DNA of 64,000 nt from Candidatus Hydrogenedentota bacterium (GCA_020848835.1 JADLHJ010000061.1:29456-93455), one strand, 5' to 3'; shown: positions 32,202-43,926, numbered from the stretch's first letter. Numbers and translations are program-made. Notes: a model not told the origin generated them from the letters alone.

Positions 32202-33938
32202 GTGGCCGTGGCCGGTGAAATCGCTTTCGAGCGGCAACTGATTCGGGACGGGGTTCTGGACGAGGCCCGGCTGGCGAAGGCGCGTCAGGACGCCGCGAGC
32301 CGGGGTGTGGCGTTGCCGGAGGCGCTGGTTCAGGCGGGCGTGGCCACGGCCGATACGGTCTACCGTTCTCTGGCCGATTTTTGCGAAATGCGCTTTGTTT
32401 CGCCCAGCAAGATGGACATCCCGGTGGATGTCGTCTCCAAAGTCCCCGCACGTTTCGCGACCCACTATAACTTTGTGCCTGTGCAGGAACGCAATGGCAC
32501 GATCGTCGTTGCCGTTTCCGATCCGCTGAACCATCAATTGCTCGACGACATTCGCCTGGTACTCAAAAAACAGCGCGTCGAAATCGTCGTGGCAACACCG
32601 GACGAAATCAGCCGTGCAAAGAAATCGCTCTACGGCGTGGGCGCGGACACGGTCGAGAGGATTCTAAGCGAGTCTGACAGCGTCGCCAACGTCGTAAGCC
32701 TTGATGCTGCGAGTGCAGGCACCGATCTCGGCGACGACAATCTCGATGCCTCAATCATTAAATTCGTAAATGAACTGTTCGCGGAGGCGATTCGCACCGG
32801 CGCGACGGATATTCACCTCGAACCGTTTGAAGACCAGTTACGCTTGCGGTACCGCATTGATGGAATACTGCACGGCGTGCCGACGCCGCCATCCATTCGC
32901 GGGTTTCATCCCGCAATTGTTTCGCGCGTAAAAATCATGGCGAACCTGAACATCGCGGAGAAGCGCCTGCCGCAGGATGGCAAGATCCGCGCGTCGTTGG
33001 GTGAGGAACAATTCGACTTGCGTGTGTCGGTGCTACCGACCCCGCACGGCGAAACGGTGAACCTGCGAATTTTGAATCGCTCTTCCATGTTTATGACGTT
33101 GGAACAACTCGGTTTCACCGGCAAAGATTTGGAATTGTTCAATACCTTTCTCACGCGTCCGCACGGCATGATCCTCGTTACTGGGCCGACGGGTAGCGGA
33201 AAAACCACCACACTTTATGCGGCGCTGAGCAAGCTCAACAAGCTCGAACACAAGATCATCACGATCGAAGACCCGATCGAATATCAGCTCAAAGGCATCA
33301 CGCAAATGCAGACCGCCGCGCAGATCGGTTTCGACTTTTCGTCGGCGTTGCGCTCTATGTTGCGTCACGACCCGGATGTGATGCTGGTGGGCGAGATACG
33401 CGATTACGAGACGGCGGAGATGGCGATCCGTTCGAGTCTTACCGGTCACCTTGTCTTCAGCACGCTGCATACAAACGATGCCGCCGGCGCGGTGACGCGT
33501 TTGACCGACATGGGTGTTGAACCCTTCCTCATCGCGAGCACGATGATCGCGTCGCTCGCGCAACGCCTGGTGCGCTGCATCTGCAAACATTGCGCGGAAG
33601 ACTACACGCCCAACGCTGCGGACTTCGCAGAATTGGGCCGTTCGCCCGAGGATGCGAAAGGCGCGACATTCAAACGCGGACGGGGCTGCGATGCTTGCCG
33701 TCATACGGGCTACCACGGCCGCATCGCAATTTACGAGATGCTCCCGTTCACAAATGAAATCAAAGAGATGACCATTCGCCGAGAACCGTCCACGCGCATC
33801 AAGCGCCGCGCGATCGAGCTCGGCATGCGCACGCTGCGCGATTCGGGTTGGCAACGCGTGTGCGATGGCCGCACGACATTCGAAGAAGTGATGCGCGTCA
33901 CCGCGGAGGCCGACGTCTTCGACGACGTCGCGGTGTGA
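32202..33938 (+). CDS. gspE: Type II secretion system ATPase GspE (N-terminal GspE-N domain, Walker A, tetracysteine zinc motif).
   Basis: GTG start at 32202. VTGPTGSGKTTTLYAAL Walker A. CKHC...CDAC zinc motif. N-terminal domain IAFERQLIRDGVLDEARLAKARQ. Confidence 0.9.
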   Translation: MAVAGEIAFERQLIRDGVLDEARLAKARQDAASRGVALPEALVQAGVATADTVYRSLADFCEMRFVSPSKMDIPVDVVSKVPARFATHYNFVPVQERNGTIVVAVSDPLNHQLLDDIRLVLKKQRVEIVVATPDEISRAKKSLYGVGADTVERILSESDSVANVVSLDAASAGTDLGDDNLDASIIKFVNELFAEAIRTGATDIHLEPFEDQLRLRYRIDGILHGVPTPPSIRGFHPAIVSRVKIMANLNIAEKRLPQDGKIRASLGEEQFDLRVSVLPTPHGETVNLRILNRSSMFMTLEQLGFTGKDLELFNTFLTRPHGMILVTGPTGSGKTTTLYAALSKLNKLEHKIITIEDPIEYQLKGITQMQTAAQIGFDFSSALRSMLRHDPDVMLVGEIRDYETAEMAIRSSLTGHLVFSTLHTNDAAGAVTRLTDMGVEPFLIASTMIASLAQRLVRCICKHCAEDYTPNAADFAELGRSPEDAKGATFKRGRGCDACRHTGYHGRIAIYEMLPFTNEIKEMTIRREPSTRIKRRAIELGMRTLRDSGWQRVCDGRTTFEEVMRVTAEADVFDDVAV

Positions 33939-33939
33939 G

Positions 33940-41330: not shown

Positions 41331-41463
41331 TCTGTTGTCTACCAACTACCGGGCTGATTCGTTATACTCTCTGCGTTGCGCCCACAAAGGGGCGGTCAAT
41401 GCGGAAACTGGGAAGGGGATTGTGCGGGGTGCGGCGTATCGTGCCGCCCGCGACGATACATTG

Positions 41464-43926
41464 ATGGCGCAGCGAATACTACAAATCGGGTTTACTTCGA
41501 TCGGGTTGGCAATATGTTGCGCCATGACCGCATTCGCTCAGCAAAGCCCATCGACGCCAACCCAACAGCCCACCGTCGAAAGCAGCGTGAACAGCATCCT
41601 CATGCAGGAACCGCAGTCCCAGCAAGAAGGCGGCGGTTCCCAGGGCGAAGCGCCACGTTCACGGCGCAATACAGAACCCGGCAAATCAGGCACGGGTGTA
41701 ACGGCAATTCAGGGCGAGCGCCGCTCTGTTACCGTTGGCGGGCAGGGTGCGTTTGAACCAATCTTGAATCAGAAGATTCCCACTGTTGAGCTCCCCGATG
41801 ACGGCGAATTGATAACAATGAACTCGTCGGACGGGGCGATGCCCGTGATTGAGATATTGGACGGCATTGCCGCCGCCACCGGTTGGAACGTCGTGGCGTC
41901 ACCTGGCGTGGAAAAGGAAGCCATTCGCTTCTGGGTGAAAGACGTCAAACCACGCCAGATCATGGAAATCCTCAAGTTCAATCACATTCACTACGATTTC
42001 GATCCGGCCACAAAGTTTCTATACGTAATGTTGGACGGCGAATTTCTCGAACGCGAATACGGCGACATGAAGAAGGCCGAGTTCAACGTGAAGCACGCCG
42101 ATGTGATGGACATGGAGCAAGTGCTGAACGGCCTGATGTCTACGACGGGCCGACTCATCAGCGACCCGCGCACCGGCAACGTGATCGTGTGGGACACACA
42201 GGCCAACCTCGACGCCATGCGCGATGCCGTGCAACAATTGGACGTACCGCTGCAGCCGCGCGTGTTCATGCTCAAACACCTTCAAGCCGATAGTTTGCTC
42301 GAAACGATTCAGAGCCTTTTGTCTGAGCGCGGCCTCGCCCAAGCCGACCCGCGCGCGAACAGCATTGTGGTTACCGACCTGCCCGCGCGCCAGGACCAAA
42401 TCGGCGAGATGATAGAAGCGCTCGATCAACCGCTCATCACCAAGACTTGGACACTCCGCTACATTGAACCCAAAGACGTCTCGGAGCGTTTGGAAAATAT
42501 CGTTCCCGAAGAAGCCGGAATCATCACCTTCGACGAAGATACCCACCAGATCAGCATGACTGCGATCGGCAGCCGCATCGACGAAGTGGATGCGATGATC
42601 AAGGAGTGGGACATCAAGGGACTTCAGGTCCAGATCGAGACGTTCCTCGTTTCCGCGAGCAGCAATGTCATTCGAGATCTATCCATCGACTGGGCCTACT
42701 TCGATGAGATCAGCGGCGTGCCCTTCGCCATCCAAAGCGGAGGTTCGCGTCCCAATTACACGACCGCTCCCGATGCCGGCCAGCGCGCAAGCGTGGGGCG
42801 CTACCCTTACCGCGCGTTTTTGCAAGACGACGTGACCGGCTCGTTCTTCCAGGAGTTGAGCAACCCAAGCGGACGCGAGGCCGGCGCGCCCACAGGCAAC
42901 CTCATCCTCGATCCCGATTTCAAAGGTAACCGAGTCGCAGTTGTGCTCGATTACCTTGACCGCACCGGCGAAGTGAACATCCTCGCGCGTCCCCGCGTGA
43001 CCGTACAAGACGGTGAAGAGGCCACCTTTGAAAACACCACCGATCAGCCGTTCCAAAGCGTTGGCTTCACGGGTTACGGTGGCACCGTGATTGACAATGG
43101 CGGCGGTAGCGACCCGGTGAATGACGTGTCCAGCCGCGTCATACCTGGCCAGGTTCAATTCATCAAAGTCGGTACGATCCTGAAAGTGAAACCGCGTGTG
43201 AACGATGAGGACAACATCCTCATGGATATCGAGACCGAAGAAAGCACCGCGGAAGACAAGACGATTCTCGCAGGCGGCCTCGCCAGCACGATTCCCCAAA
43301 AGACGCAGAACAAAGCCGAGACCCAAGTGCTCGTGAACGACGGCCAGACTATCGTTATCGGCGGTCTGCGCGCGGTCACGGTGCAAGACGACGTCGAGCG
43401 CGTGCCTGTCTTGGGTAGCATTCCTTTCATCGGCCGGCTGTTCAAATCTACAGAAAAAGATCATCGCGACCGCGAACTTGCCGTATTCATCACGCCAACA
43501 ATCGTAGACGAATACACGCAATCTGAAGCCGTGCGCGCCGCGGCCTTTGATGAAGAGATGGCCGACAAGGTACGGCATTCCCAGAAGGGCATTTTCGGTC
43601 GTGCGCAAGACCGCCTGACAGACGGCAAGAATGAACTCAGCGTTTCTGTCGGTCACACGGGCGCCATTCAGTCTGAGGGCAAAGTACTCACTGAAGAAGA
43701 ACTCGGCGACAAGTTCAATTCCTTCCGCGACGCCAAAGTGAAACCCTTGGTGATAGTCCGTATTCACCCCGATGCCCCAAGGGGCATTGAAGCGAGCATA
43801 CGCGAACTCGCAATGCTGGCCGGATTAAAGATGGAAACGGAGACACAGCGCACGCCATTTGTCCCCGCCGCCCGCGACCAAGTACCAGTGCCATTAGAGA
43901 CAATGGAAACTTCTCCGGAACCCTAG
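41464..43926 (+). CDS. gspD: Type II secretion system secretin GspD.
   Basis: Signal peptide MAQRILQIGFTSIGLAICCAMTAFAQ (ATG at 41464). C-terminal secretin signature VPVLGSIPFIGRLFKS...RELAVFITPTIV. N-domains after a Q/S-rich linker. Confidence 0.85.
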   Translation: MAQRILQIGFTSIGLAICCAMTAFAQQSPSTPTQQPTVESSVNSILMQEPQSQQEGGGSQGEAPRSRRNTEPGKSGTGVTAIQGERRSVTVGGQGAFEPILNQKIPTVELPDDGELITMNSSDGAMPVIEILDGIAAATGWNVVASPGVEKEAIRFWVKDVKPRQIMEILKFNHIHYDFDPATKFLYVMLDGEFLEREYGDMKKAEFNVKHADVMDMEQVLNGLMSTTGRLISDPRTGNVIVWDTQANLDAMRDAVQQLDVPLQPRVFMLKHLQADSLLETIQSLLSERGLAQADPRANSIVVTDLPARQDQIGEMIEALDQPLITKTWTLRYIEPKDVSERLENIVPEEAGIITFDEDTHQISMTAIGSRIDEVDAMIKEWDIKGLQVQIETFLVSASSNVIRDLSIDWAYFDEISGVPFAIQSGGSRPNYTTAPDAGQRASVGRYPYRAFLQDDVTGSFFQELSNPSGREAGAPTGNLILDPDFKGNRVAVVLDYLDRTGEVNILARPRVTVQDGEEATFENTTDQPFQSVGFTGYGGTVIDNGGGSDPVNDVSSRVIPGQVQFIKVGTILKVKPRVNDEDNILMDIETEESTAEDKTILAGGLASTIPQKTQNKAETQVLVNDGQTIVIGGLRAVTVQDDVERVPVLGSIPFIGRLFKSTEKDHRDRELAVFITPTIVDEYTQSEAVRAAAFDEEMADKVRHSQKGIFGRAQDRLTDGKNELSVSVGHTGAIQSEGKVLTEEELGDKFNSFRDAKVKPLVIVRIHPDAPRGIEASIRELAMLAGLKMETETQRTPFVPAARDQVPVPLETMETSPEP

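Follow-up and report, generated by a model that had tools for sequence, protein, structure and literature searches.

The closest described relatives of the machinery considered here are the canonical type II secretion systems (T2SSs) of proteobacteria (Gsp/Pul/Eps/Xcp; gspC-O in E. coli K-12), whose genes run in the order C-D-E..O in an operon that includes gspO and whose GspC has a PDZ or coiled-coil domain. The other point of reference is the type IV pilus of the T4aP kind, with separate PilM and PilN, a lipoprotein PilP, a PilQ carrying AMIN domains and the retraction ATPase PilT. GspC is mandatory in the final TXSScan model of the T2SS (PMC6668835). Dickeya has an inner-membrane-anchored T2SS accessory, GspB/OutB, whose periplasmic HR domain binds the N0 domain of the secretin and whose extension scaffolds the machine in peptidoglycan (PMC9239104).

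The window is the whole 64-kb stretch of DNA that was analysed, from an uncultured Hydrogenedentota bacterium represented only by a MAG. Within it lie eleven tightly packed plus-strand genes (32202-43926), those for E to M, for a 160-aa HR-domain protein and for a secretin, and all eleven consecutive ORFs proposed in a first-pass annotation were found at the positions listed here. Intergenic spacing is -29 to +12 nt; upstream of the secretin the gap measures 133 nt with Met44 (41464) as the true start and 4 nt with TTG 41335.

32202..33938, + strand: GspE-type assembly ATPase, 578 aa, N-terminal MshEN (Pfam T2SSE and MshEN; TIGR02533; E. coli K-12 identity)
33940..35151, + strand: GspF-type inner-membrane platform protein, 403 aa (Pfam T2SSF twice; TIGR02120)
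35155..35574, + strand: major pseudopilin GspG, 139 aa, prepilin motif G/FSLLE (Pfam T2SSG and N_methyl; TIGR01710)
35584..36099, + strand: GspH-like minor pseudopilin, 171 aa, G/FTLLE (N_methyl; NCBIfam GspH)
36096..36581, + strand: GspI/PilV-like minor pseudopilin, 161 aa, G/WVLIE (weak PilV/GspI scores; position in the H-I-J-K order)
36553..37305, + strand: GspJ-position minor pseudopilin, 250 aa, G/FTLAE (N_methyl; position and size only)
37302..38285, + strand: GspK-type minor pseudopilin, 327 aa, G/FVLVA, two helix-hairpin-helix motifs (Pfam T2SSK, HHH_3)
38263..39744, + strand: GspL-architecture protein, 493 aa, with actin-like PilM domain, TM and PilN-like periplasmic domain (PilM_2, T2SSL, PilN)
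39757..40344, + strand: GspM/PilO part of the fusion protein, residues 1-196
40345..40404, + strand: disordered hypervariable linker of the GspM fusion, residues 197-216 (pLDDT, column conservation)
40405..40851, + strand: predicted CBM4/9-like beta-jelly-roll of the GspM fusion, residues 217-364, periplasmic
40848..41330, + strand: minimal GspC/PilP-type protein, 160 aa (AF2 model, Foldseek)
41464..43926, + strand: secretin, 820 aa from Met44, the ORF opening at TTG 41335 (Pfam Secretin, Secretin_N three times)
43620..43830, + strand: ExbD/TolR-like domain at the secretin C-terminus (tail conservation, Pfam ExbD)

The component set is that of the canonical T2SS (E to M, a C-type HR protein and D), and the GspG and GspK hallmarks, the adjacency of C and D and the single compact operon are common to both. 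The gene order differs, E-F-G..M-C-D here, and gspO is missing. No Peptidase_A24/GspO homologue was found among the window's unambiguous ORFs of at least 180 aa, six-frame tblastn of the window with E. coli GspO returned nothing, and neither the 64-kb window nor any of 37 related loci yielded a prepilin peptidase. The first-pass annotation had remarked on this lack, correctly, and had nonetheless called the operon complete, a word that holds for E to M, a C-like protein and D but not for gspO. A gene for the prepilin peptidase would have to lie elsewhere in the genome. Homologues of all the operon genes occur, collinearly, in the 37 related loci, so that chance arrangement is not an issue, and the synteny comparison suggested earlier gave a collinear G-H-I-J-K-L-M-C-D block in all related loci with enough flank.

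Most profile scores that bear on the choice between T2SS and type IV pilus lie below the equivalog cutoffs, including those of the canonical T2SS families, and pairwise identity with E. coli is detectable for D, E, F, G and H only (for H over just the N-terminal ~55 residues, E 2.8e-5). The ATPase matches Pfam T2SSE (434 bits) and MshEN (80 bits), is 43% identical to E. coli K-12 GspE and has GspE as its best family (TIGR02533, 603 bits against a cutoff of 630; PilB 573), and the platform protein scores 390 bits with TIGR02120 GspF (cutoff 424) and 346 with PilC. The major pseudopilin carries the DGWGN...YDLYSMGADG tail ascribed to it, matches Pfam T2SSG at 60.5 bits (gathering score 21) and N_methyl, is 36% identical to E. 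coli GspG and, at 88.9 bits, just reaches the 88.85 cutoff of the GspG equivalog TIGR01710. H, I and J all have prepilin-type N-termini with Glu+5, and their identities are assigned putatively, from weak scores and from position in the H-I-J-K order: the best NCBIfam match of H is GspH (45 bits, under cutoff), I scores 27.2 bits with PilV and 26.7 with GspI (both under cutoff), and J has N_methyl as its sole Pfam match and gspJ at E=0.07. K matches Pfam T2SSK at 34.3 bits (gathering score 24.2) and HHH_3, scores 54.6 bits with NF037980 GspK (under cutoff) and has Ala in place of Glu at +5, as had been claimed; its supposed pair of NVNTAP motifs proved to be one SVNTAP and one NVNTAP. Protein L has the actin-like, TM and periplasmic parts described for it, namely a PilM_2 match at residues 48-198 (39.9 bits, gathering score 27) that scores better than T2SSL (24.7 bits, gathering score 25.5), a TM segment at 326-349 and a weak PilN match at 396-475 (E=0.015). 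This fusion of PilM and PilN is the architecture of GspL, whereas the two are separate proteins in T4aP.

The 160-aa protein consists of a TM anchor, a P-rich linker and a ~65-aa HR beta-domain (AF2 pLDDT ~90 for residues 95-160), for which the top Foldseek matches are the HR domain of GspC (3oss_C, TM 0.66, 25% identity), PilP, LspC and the PulC HR domain; Pfam T2SSC reaches 16.7 bits (E=0.0068), below the gathering score of 27. Neither PDZ nor coiled coil is present in its Pfam profiles or AF2 model, unlike in canonical GspC and in line with the first reading of it as a small GspC. On the predicted structure we regard it as GspC-like, the HR fold being common also to PilP and GspB. The secretin has a signal peptide followed by the Q/S/G-rich stretch pointed out earlier, three Secretin_N domains, a Secretin domain (144 bits) and a C-terminal extension; its scores for GspD (204 bits) and PilQ (201 bits) are both under cutoff and do not discriminate the subtypes. 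The tail is conserved in all related loci, and Pfam ExbD matches 10 of 14 such tails (best E 5.6e-6; E=0.022 in the window). An ExbD/TolR-like C-terminal domain, joined in some lineages by a SPOR domain, is unlike the canonical T2SS secretin.

Several of these results could be read as those of an operon for a surface filament that resembles a type IV pilus and serves adhesion or motility, with M, L and C as the equivalents of PilO, PilMN and PilP and a CBM-like domain unrelated to secretion. L gives higher scores with PilM_2 and PilN than with T2SSL. Among solved structures the M core matches PilO best, and PilP ranks with the top matches of the HR protein. The secretin scores alike for GspD and PilQ, and E and F fall under the GspE and GspF cutoffs. 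We consider such a filament improbable, since E and F nevertheless score higher with Gsp than with Pil models, the 139-aa major subunit reaches the GspG cutoff, a GspK-type subunit without Glu5 belongs to the operon, PilM and PilN are fused, the HR protein is anchored by a TM segment and has no lipobox, the secretin bears three Secretin_N and no AMIN domain, and neither an AMIN domain nor a PilT-type second ATPase occurs in the window. The T4aP set, which the first-pass annotation had named as the rival to its T2SS assignment, is thus not found here. Together with the T2SSM profile, matched by 20 of 26 M homologues, and the single operon, these features support an operon that is a T2SS, ordinary in kind, with PilMNOP-like features.

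The unusual component is GspM, which is 364 aa long here and 153 aa in E. coli. Its GspM/PilO part comprises a short cytoplasmic tail, a TM segment, a coiled-coil helix to about residue 75 and a ferredoxin-like domain at 83-195 that bears the family signature HSSxWTQEEIHDRLR. There follows a linker with pLDDT < 50 at residues 198-213 and a column conservation of 0.16, whose length ranges among relatives from 20 to ~90 residues (the latter in P0163). The first-pass annotation had placed a CBM4/9-like jelly roll between the motifs NLIENADFAQWD and GATYEVTFVAKASG, both of which were located in the GspM-like protein, and had proposed structure prediction as a check. The AF2 model returned a jelly roll (pLDDT ~90) that Foldseek matches to CBM4-2 (TM 0.68-0.70, E ~1e-8); the pTM of the whole model is low (0.43). 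The profile scans were less uniform: CBM_4_9 is matched at E<=0.01 by 5 of 26 M-family members, but in the window copy neither T2SSM nor CBM_4_9 (PF02018, 15.3 bits, gathering score 25.9) reaches its Pfam threshold, just as T2SSC does not in the small protein. The results support a C-terminal domain predicted to be a 148-residue beta-jelly-roll of the CBM4/9 fold, carried on a disordered linker of variable length; no catalytic domain was found in the fusion protein by Pfam profiles or in the AF2 model.

Searching the library with the fusion yielded, at E<=1e-30, 165 clusters made at 50% identity, the majority of the 150 listed being full length (340-370 aa), and the fusion is present at 34 genome loci, mostly of records titled as Hydrogenedentota. 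From these sequences the architecture appears ancestral and nearly universal in the Hydrogenedentota genomes sampled. The jelly roll is missing entirely, by loss, from at least one lineage (L020) that kept the operon, so that the module is dispensable there. The fusion is unannotated and is not described in the literature searched.

What might such a domain do? GspM is present in several copies per T2SS machine, so that the tethered jelly rolls would form a crown around the base of the periplasmic vestibule. From what is established for T2SSs, folded periplasmic proteins would be pushed through the secretin by ATP-driven growth of the pseudopilus. The crown might meanwhile bind a glycan of the envelope, most obviously peptidoglycan strands, and could thereby keep the platform in the inner membrane aligned with both cell wall and secretin. 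Taken as a whole, the locus is best explained as a Hydrogenedentota T2SS with a jelly roll of CBM4/9 fold on GspM, to which we give a probability of about 55%; that the crown's own role is envelope-glycan binding, as a peptidoglycan tether, is a tentative first choice, closely rivalled by cargo recognition and protein docking.

Several observations speak for a tether. The linker is disordered, unconserved and variable in length, other peptidoglycan-related modules sit in the same machine (the ExbD-like tail and SPOR on the secretin), and the jelly roll has a set of semi-conserved residues (Y271/Q272, E283, D287, R321, R323, R325, R339) whose strand alternation suggests that they are surface-exposed. 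AMIN, LysM and the peptidoglycan-binding domain of GspA are further peptidoglycan-binding modules in T2SSs and type IV pili. The C-terminal extension of OutB/GspB is a precedent in a T2SS, on an inner-membrane-anchored accessory that scaffolds in peptidoglycan (PMC9239104). Other observations speak against it: strong conservation is limited to fold-scaffold residues, about one third of the family lack the first strand motif (NLxxNxxFE), L020 dispenses with the domain, the putative peptidoglycan-binding modules already on the secretin could make such a role of GspM redundant, and the CBM fold also binds proteins (e.g. the Vip3/Cry toxins and tailspikes in the same structure match lists). The strongly conserved residues are, we presume, the generic scaffold of the CBM_4_9 consensus and hence indicate no particular sugar.

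The jelly roll could instead be a cargo receptor at the vestibule entrance that passes substrates, which might be glycosylated exoproteins or carbohydrate-active enzymes held through a bound sugar or a protein patch, to the pseudopilus tip; it would then replace the PDZ/coiled-coil function missing from the minimal GspC, which is only TM, linker and HR. As expected of specificity determinants, M and C are the fastest-evolving operon components (51-53% identical in L004, compared with 74-86% for E, F, G and D). Conservation is lower in the jelly roll than in the GspM core (0.40 versus 0.57), and a linker that is flexible and varies in length would serve a capture arm well. Still, we know of no T2SS with a documented cargo-binding role for GspM, no conserved aromatic platform was evident in the family conservation of the jelly roll, and L020 lost the domain without losing the operon. 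We hold a receptor to be rather unlikely.

Doubtful, too, is a structural module that binds no sugar and docks on the secretin N-domains, the HR protein or adjacent GspL/M, stiffening or spacing the periplasmic cage. It would suit the confinement of strong conservation to scaffold residues, the sub-threshold CBM_4_9 scores of the window copy and of 21 of 26 homologues, and the non-lectin contexts of the fold among the matches (Vip3, Cry, reelin, MAM). A disordered, unconserved linker of 20-90 residues and the pTM of 0.43 speak against a fixed position, however, and the structures that match the domain most closely belong to genuine glycan binders.

The preferred tether has partial counterparts among known systems. 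The jelly roll is predicted to share the beta-jelly-roll fold of the CBM4/9/16/22 superfamily with CBM4/CBM_4_9 modules (Rhodothermus marinus Xyn10A CBM4-2, 4bj0 and 2y64; Thermotoga Lam16A CBM4-2, 1gui), whose family consensus has NxxFE..W, GxxY and a terminal DNV as the sequence hallmarks of the fold. Those modules sit in carbohydrate-active enzymes, whereas the domain described here is periplasmic, on a membrane-anchored secretion-platform protein, and it is only 15-22% identical to the CBM4 structures. A CBM-like domain is not known to us from any PilO, and no such PilO was found in the searches made. OutB/GspB provides a precedent both for the TM and HR architecture of the 160-aa protein and for peptidoglycan contact by an inner-membrane-anchored component, but it is a separate protein that meets peptidoglycan through an unstructured C-terminal extension (PMC9239104), whereas GspM has a domain of predicted CBM fold, and the 160-aa protein has GspC HR and PilP, in contrast to GspB/OutB, as its top structural matches. 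The component set and the machine are thus already known in kind; what is new is a GspM with an extra periplasmic domain of sugar-binding type.

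Open reading frame listing combined with Pfam and NCBIfam scans recovers the eleven plus-strand genes of a type II secretion system (T2SS) exactly as claimed by the first-pass annotation. In window coordinates, they are:

32202-33938, plus strand: E, T2SSE and MshEN domains (Pfam)
33940-35151, plus strand: F, two T2SSF domains (Pfam)
35155-35574, plus strand: G, T2SSG and N_methyl (Pfam)
35584-36099, plus strand: H, prepilin N-terminus with Glu at +5
36096-36581, plus strand: I, prepilin N-terminus with Glu at +5
36553-37305, plus strand: J, prepilin N-terminus with Glu at +5
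37302-38285, plus strand: K, T2SSK above the gathering score, two HhH motifs, Ala at +5
38263-39744, plus strand: L, PilM-like domain, one transmembrane (TM) segment (326-349), weakly PilN-like periplasmic part
39757-40851, plus strand: M-like fusion, GspM/PilO core and jelly roll
40848-41330, plus strand: 160-aa HR protein, TM segment, P-rich linker and HR beta-domain
41335-43926, plus strand: secretin, Secretin domain and three Secretin_N domains

Since the gaps between these genes run from -29 to +12 nt, they form one operon; a promoter and terminator scan gave nothing above shuffles. Met44 of the secretin (at 41464) is likely its true start, with the signal peptide after it. All of the motifs originally quoted are present, except that K carries SVNTAP and NVNTAP rather than two copies of NVNTAP.

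We read the system as a T2SS, with a probability of about 85-90%. Against NCBIfam models, the GspE equivalog is best for E (603 bits, cutoff 630; PilB, 573 bits), F scores higher with GspF than with PilC (390 versus 346 bits), and the major subunit G stands at the GspG equivalog cutoff (88.9 bits, cutoff 88.85). The alternative, a type IV pilus-like machine, draws on the fact that most scores lie below equivalog cutoffs, that L matches PilM and PilN better than T2SSL, that PilO and PilP are prominent among the structural matches, and that the secretin scores do not separate GspD from PilQ. Set against this are the H-I-J-K gene order, a GspK-type subunit without Glu5, the fusion of PilM and PilN as in GspL, T2SSM matches among the M homologues, an HR protein that is TM-anchored and adjoins the secretin, and the three Secretin_N domains of a secretin in which AMIN is absent. 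No second (retraction) ATPase was seen in the window either, and neither PilT nor a prepilin peptidase was found among the window's unambiguous open reading frames of at least 180 aa.

The reported lack of gspO in the operon held up in the Pfam and NCBIfam scans and in tblastn with E. coli GspO, the six-frame search detecting no prepilin peptidase in the window or in 37 related loci. T2SS outside Proteobacteria are reported by Denise et al. 2019, whose final model makes gspC mandatory, gspM accessory and gspO a loner exchangeable with pilD (PMC6668835); an operon without gspO is therefore ordinary. The MshEN domain at the N-terminus of E (32202-32640) scores 80 bits. By eye, both copies of its c-di-GMP-binding motif look degenerate and the leading RLG is absent. 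This motif is known from MshE, and its apparent degeneration leaves c-di-GMP control of GspE uncertain.

The first-pass annotation had also proposed a CBM4/9-like jelly roll fused to GspM, and here family domain scans, an AF2 model and Foldseek agree. Taken alone, the window protein falls below Pfam thresholds (CBM_4_9, E=0.027; no T2SSM match). A search of 5.8 billion proteins returned 36 homologues, nearly all of about 360 aa and with identities down to 30%; one, from a Candidatus Hydrogenedentes MAG, is 100% identical. Most are unnamed, and those with a source name are all "hypothetical protein" from Hydrogenedentes/Hydrogenedentota MAGs. When homologues were scanned singly, 20 of 26 matched T2SSM (best E 2.9e-10) and 5 of 26 matched CBM_4_9 (best E 1.3e-6). 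The AF2 model, built on the family alignment (mean pLDDT 82), has a TM helix continuing into a long helix (residues 10-75) and then an alpha/beta domain (83-195). From there a disordered linker (198-213, pLDDT <50) leads to a second domain that is all beta (217-364, pLDDT ~90). In a Foldseek search of the PDB, CBM4-2, CBM16, CBM61 and a hyaluronan-binding module came out on top (TM-score 0.6-0.78 normalised to the target, E ~1e-8). The profile search of PDB sequences gave three sub-threshold matches only, all carbohydrate-related: 1gui (laminarinase 16A CBM4), a GH10 chain and an alginase. Alignment of the family profile with E. coli K-12 GspM by hhalign covered the expected region and was weak (E 0.006), which is not evidence alone. 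The protein is thus a GspM/PilO core joined to a jelly roll of the CBM4/9 fold, and the single N-terminal TM segment places both domains in the periplasm.

How widely the fusion is spread bears on whether it is real. When 1.84 billion cluster representatives were searched exhaustively with an HMM, 165 clusters came up at E<=1e-30; among the 150 listed, most have 340-370 aa and align with the whole profile as two-domain proteins. Together with fused copies in 34 loci from GTDB species representatives, this led us to reject a gene-fusion or assembly artefact. Because the family motif WTQEEIHD served as the seed of the locus scan, its confinement to a single phylum is in part built in. By record title, 23 of the 34 loci are labelled Candidatus Hydrogenedentota, Hydrogenedentes, Hydrogenedentales or Hydrogenedens, and two "uncultured bacterium". 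The other nine, all TPA bins, bear the title "uncultured Nitrospirales" or "uncultured Nitrospiraceae" (seven being L008, L018, L019, L024, L026, L032 and L036) and have a Hydrogenedentota-type operon and fused GspM. These labels are probably placeholders or misassignments; the fused-GspM operon may also be spread wider than Hydrogenedentota. A profile of the CBM domain only, run on the 5.8-billion-protein set, returned one fragment (P0026) and missed the known family, and is uninformative on spread elsewhere.

The comparative synteny called for earlier shows the G-H-I-J-K-L-M-C-D block to be collinear in every locus with enough flank; only in the clade nearer to the window is it immediately preceded by E-F. 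A more distant clade (L001, L022-L024, L027-L032, L035 and L036) lacks gspE and gspF upstream of gspG, where L001 instead encodes a PASTA/CarboxypepD_reg repeat protein of 1066 aa (279-3479). Within M, the GspM core is best conserved (mean top-residue frequency 0.57; signature HSSxWTQEEIHDRLR), followed by the jelly roll (0.40) and the unconserved linker (0.16), which reaches about 90 residues in the homologue P0163. The first strand motif, NLxxNxxFE, is missing in about one third of the family. One Hydrogenedentota MAG (OFTM269, locus L020, 1523-2275) encodes a complete 250-aa M lacking the jelly roll, with the genes for the HR protein and the secretin directly after it, and is a case of natural loss. 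Judged from the family's spread and this loss, the module is ancient and usually kept, yet dispensable in at least one lineage.

Genes flanking the operon are less constant. Just upstream of gspE (31286-32017, plus strand) lies a 243-aa multi-TM protein without a Pfam family, not kept in related loci, of which residues 110-234 weakly resemble the globular part of E. coli GspG (25-144; blastp E 0.024) and the C-terminal half contains the motif 'YPITLSQLVPIYLEELP'. Directly downstream (44136-48001, plus strand) are a Cache/PAS/PAS histidine kinase of 897 aa and two response-regulator genes, not syntenic with the operon in other loci. A role in polysaccharide export, prompted by a GT2 gene upstream here and in L002, was dropped, since neither the GT2 nor the 243-aa protein nor the histidine kinase is syntenic in other loci. 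Elsewhere in the window are a 1112-aa protein without a Pfam family (15-3353, plus strand), next to it a Ser/Thr protein kinase of 1248 aa with a large fused WD40 array (3534-7280, plus strand), a 186-aa secreted-looking protein of EF-hand pairs with a weak dockerin-like match (29936-30496, minus strand) and an AI-2E-family transporter with an inserted EF-hand (53606-55324, minus strand).

The putative GspC was described as only 160 aa, without PDZ or coiled coil, and domain scans and an AF2 model bear this out. In this protein a TM helix leads through a P-rich linker to a beta-domain of about 65 residues (pLDDT ~90). T2SSC matches the protein weakly (16.7 bits) and matches 2 of 20 orthologues; a PDB sequence search with its profile gave no relevant match. 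The leading structural match is the ETEC GspC-HR (3oss_C, TM-score 0.66, 25% identity), followed by PilP (3jc8, 2y4y, 2ivw, 2lc4), LspC and PulC-HR. By hhalign, E. coli K-12 GspC aligned over the expected region, weakly (E 0.01) and not as evidence alone, and K-12 GspB, which has no HR domain, gave E 0.13. It is thus an HR-domain protein of minimal build that shares its TM anchor with GspC and GspB, whereas PilP is a lipoprotein. In a Hydrogenedens-like clade (L001 9420-9914, L022, L024, L027-L029, L035 and L036) its linker consists of about 16 prolines in a row, a rigid polyproline spacer; the window copy has a short P-rich stretch and no such run.

The secretin does have the Q/S/G-rich linker first described. 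In addition, all loci keep an extension after the Secretin domain that the earlier annotation did not mention, with an ExbD/TolR-like domain at the C-terminus (43620-43830). Of 14 orthologous tails, 10 match Pfam ExbD, the best with E 5.6e-6; the window's own tail gives E 0.022. We know of no description of such a domain on a secretin. In L002 (12004-14874; L009 is the same contig range), precomputed Pfam families place a peptidoglycan-binding SPOR domain at the C-terminus, separated from the ExbD-like domain by a long P/E-rich linker; the tails of L005 and L037 are similar, and the window secretin ends before that part.

What the data show is which components the system has and how they are built. 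From general knowledge of T2SS, G subunits would be assembled on the F/L/M platform with energy from E, the K-I-J-H tip would drive folded periplasmic cargo through the secretin, and the HR protein would connect that platform with the N-terminal domains of the secretin. Each machine contains several copies of GspM, and the fusion should therefore ring the base of the periplasmic vestibule with a crown of jelly rolls on flexible tethers of 20-90 residues. What the crown might bind can be weighed from its conservation and its relatives. The strongly conserved positions (W238, G255, G279, Y282, Y322, F326, P341 and D355/N356) are what we take to be generic CBM_4_9 scaffold residues, and strong conservation of these only counts against any specific ligand. 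A second tier (Y271/Q272, E283, D287, R321, R323, R325 and R339) takes every other place beside the core positions of the predicted strands, and these residues may form a conserved surface. With the nearest structural relatives being true glycan binders, we tentatively rank first a tether to envelope glycan or peptidoglycan. Peptidoglycan-binding modules recur as accessories in these machines, the ExbD-like and SPOR domains on this system's own secretin follow the same theme, and GspB/OutB, a peptidoglycan scaffold anchored in the inner membrane, is a direct precedent (PMC9239104). A cargo receptor is a less likely reading; it would make up for the PDZ-less GspC, and no other parts of the operon evolve as fast as M and C. 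About as likely, or slightly less so, is that the jelly roll docks a protein independently of sugar. More improbable still is a glycan-reading gate, in which a sugar mark on the cargo or a periplasmic polysaccharide would make T2SS entry carbohydrate-dependent. To our knowledge, neither carbohydrate-dependent selection of T2SS substrates nor polysaccharide handling by a T2SS-like machine has been described.

It is understood only in part how T2SS choose their cargo and how their inner-membrane platform is placed with respect to cell wall and secretin. Full-text literature searches found T2SS in Hydrogenedentota only in passing mentions, and no description of a GspM or PilO with a carbohydrate-binding-type domain. 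This natural, Hydrogenedentota-wide variant offers a defined and testable case of accessory domains rewiring the periplasmic part of the machine, and gives an annotation to a family of more than 150 clusters whose named members have so far been "hypothetical protein". If the jelly roll is a plain wall anchor, it adds modestly to the catalogue of peptidoglycan-binding accessories; if the glycan-reading gate were true, an entire uncultured phylum would share carbohydrate-dependent entry. The operon itself is ordinary, a variant of a known machine rather than a new kind of machine, and its moderate interest lies in three features. Compared with the canonical T2SS, GspM carries a tethered lectin-fold domain across the Hydrogenedentota genomes sampled, GspC is cut down to its HR domain, and the secretin has gained ExbD/TolR-like and sometimes SPOR modules.
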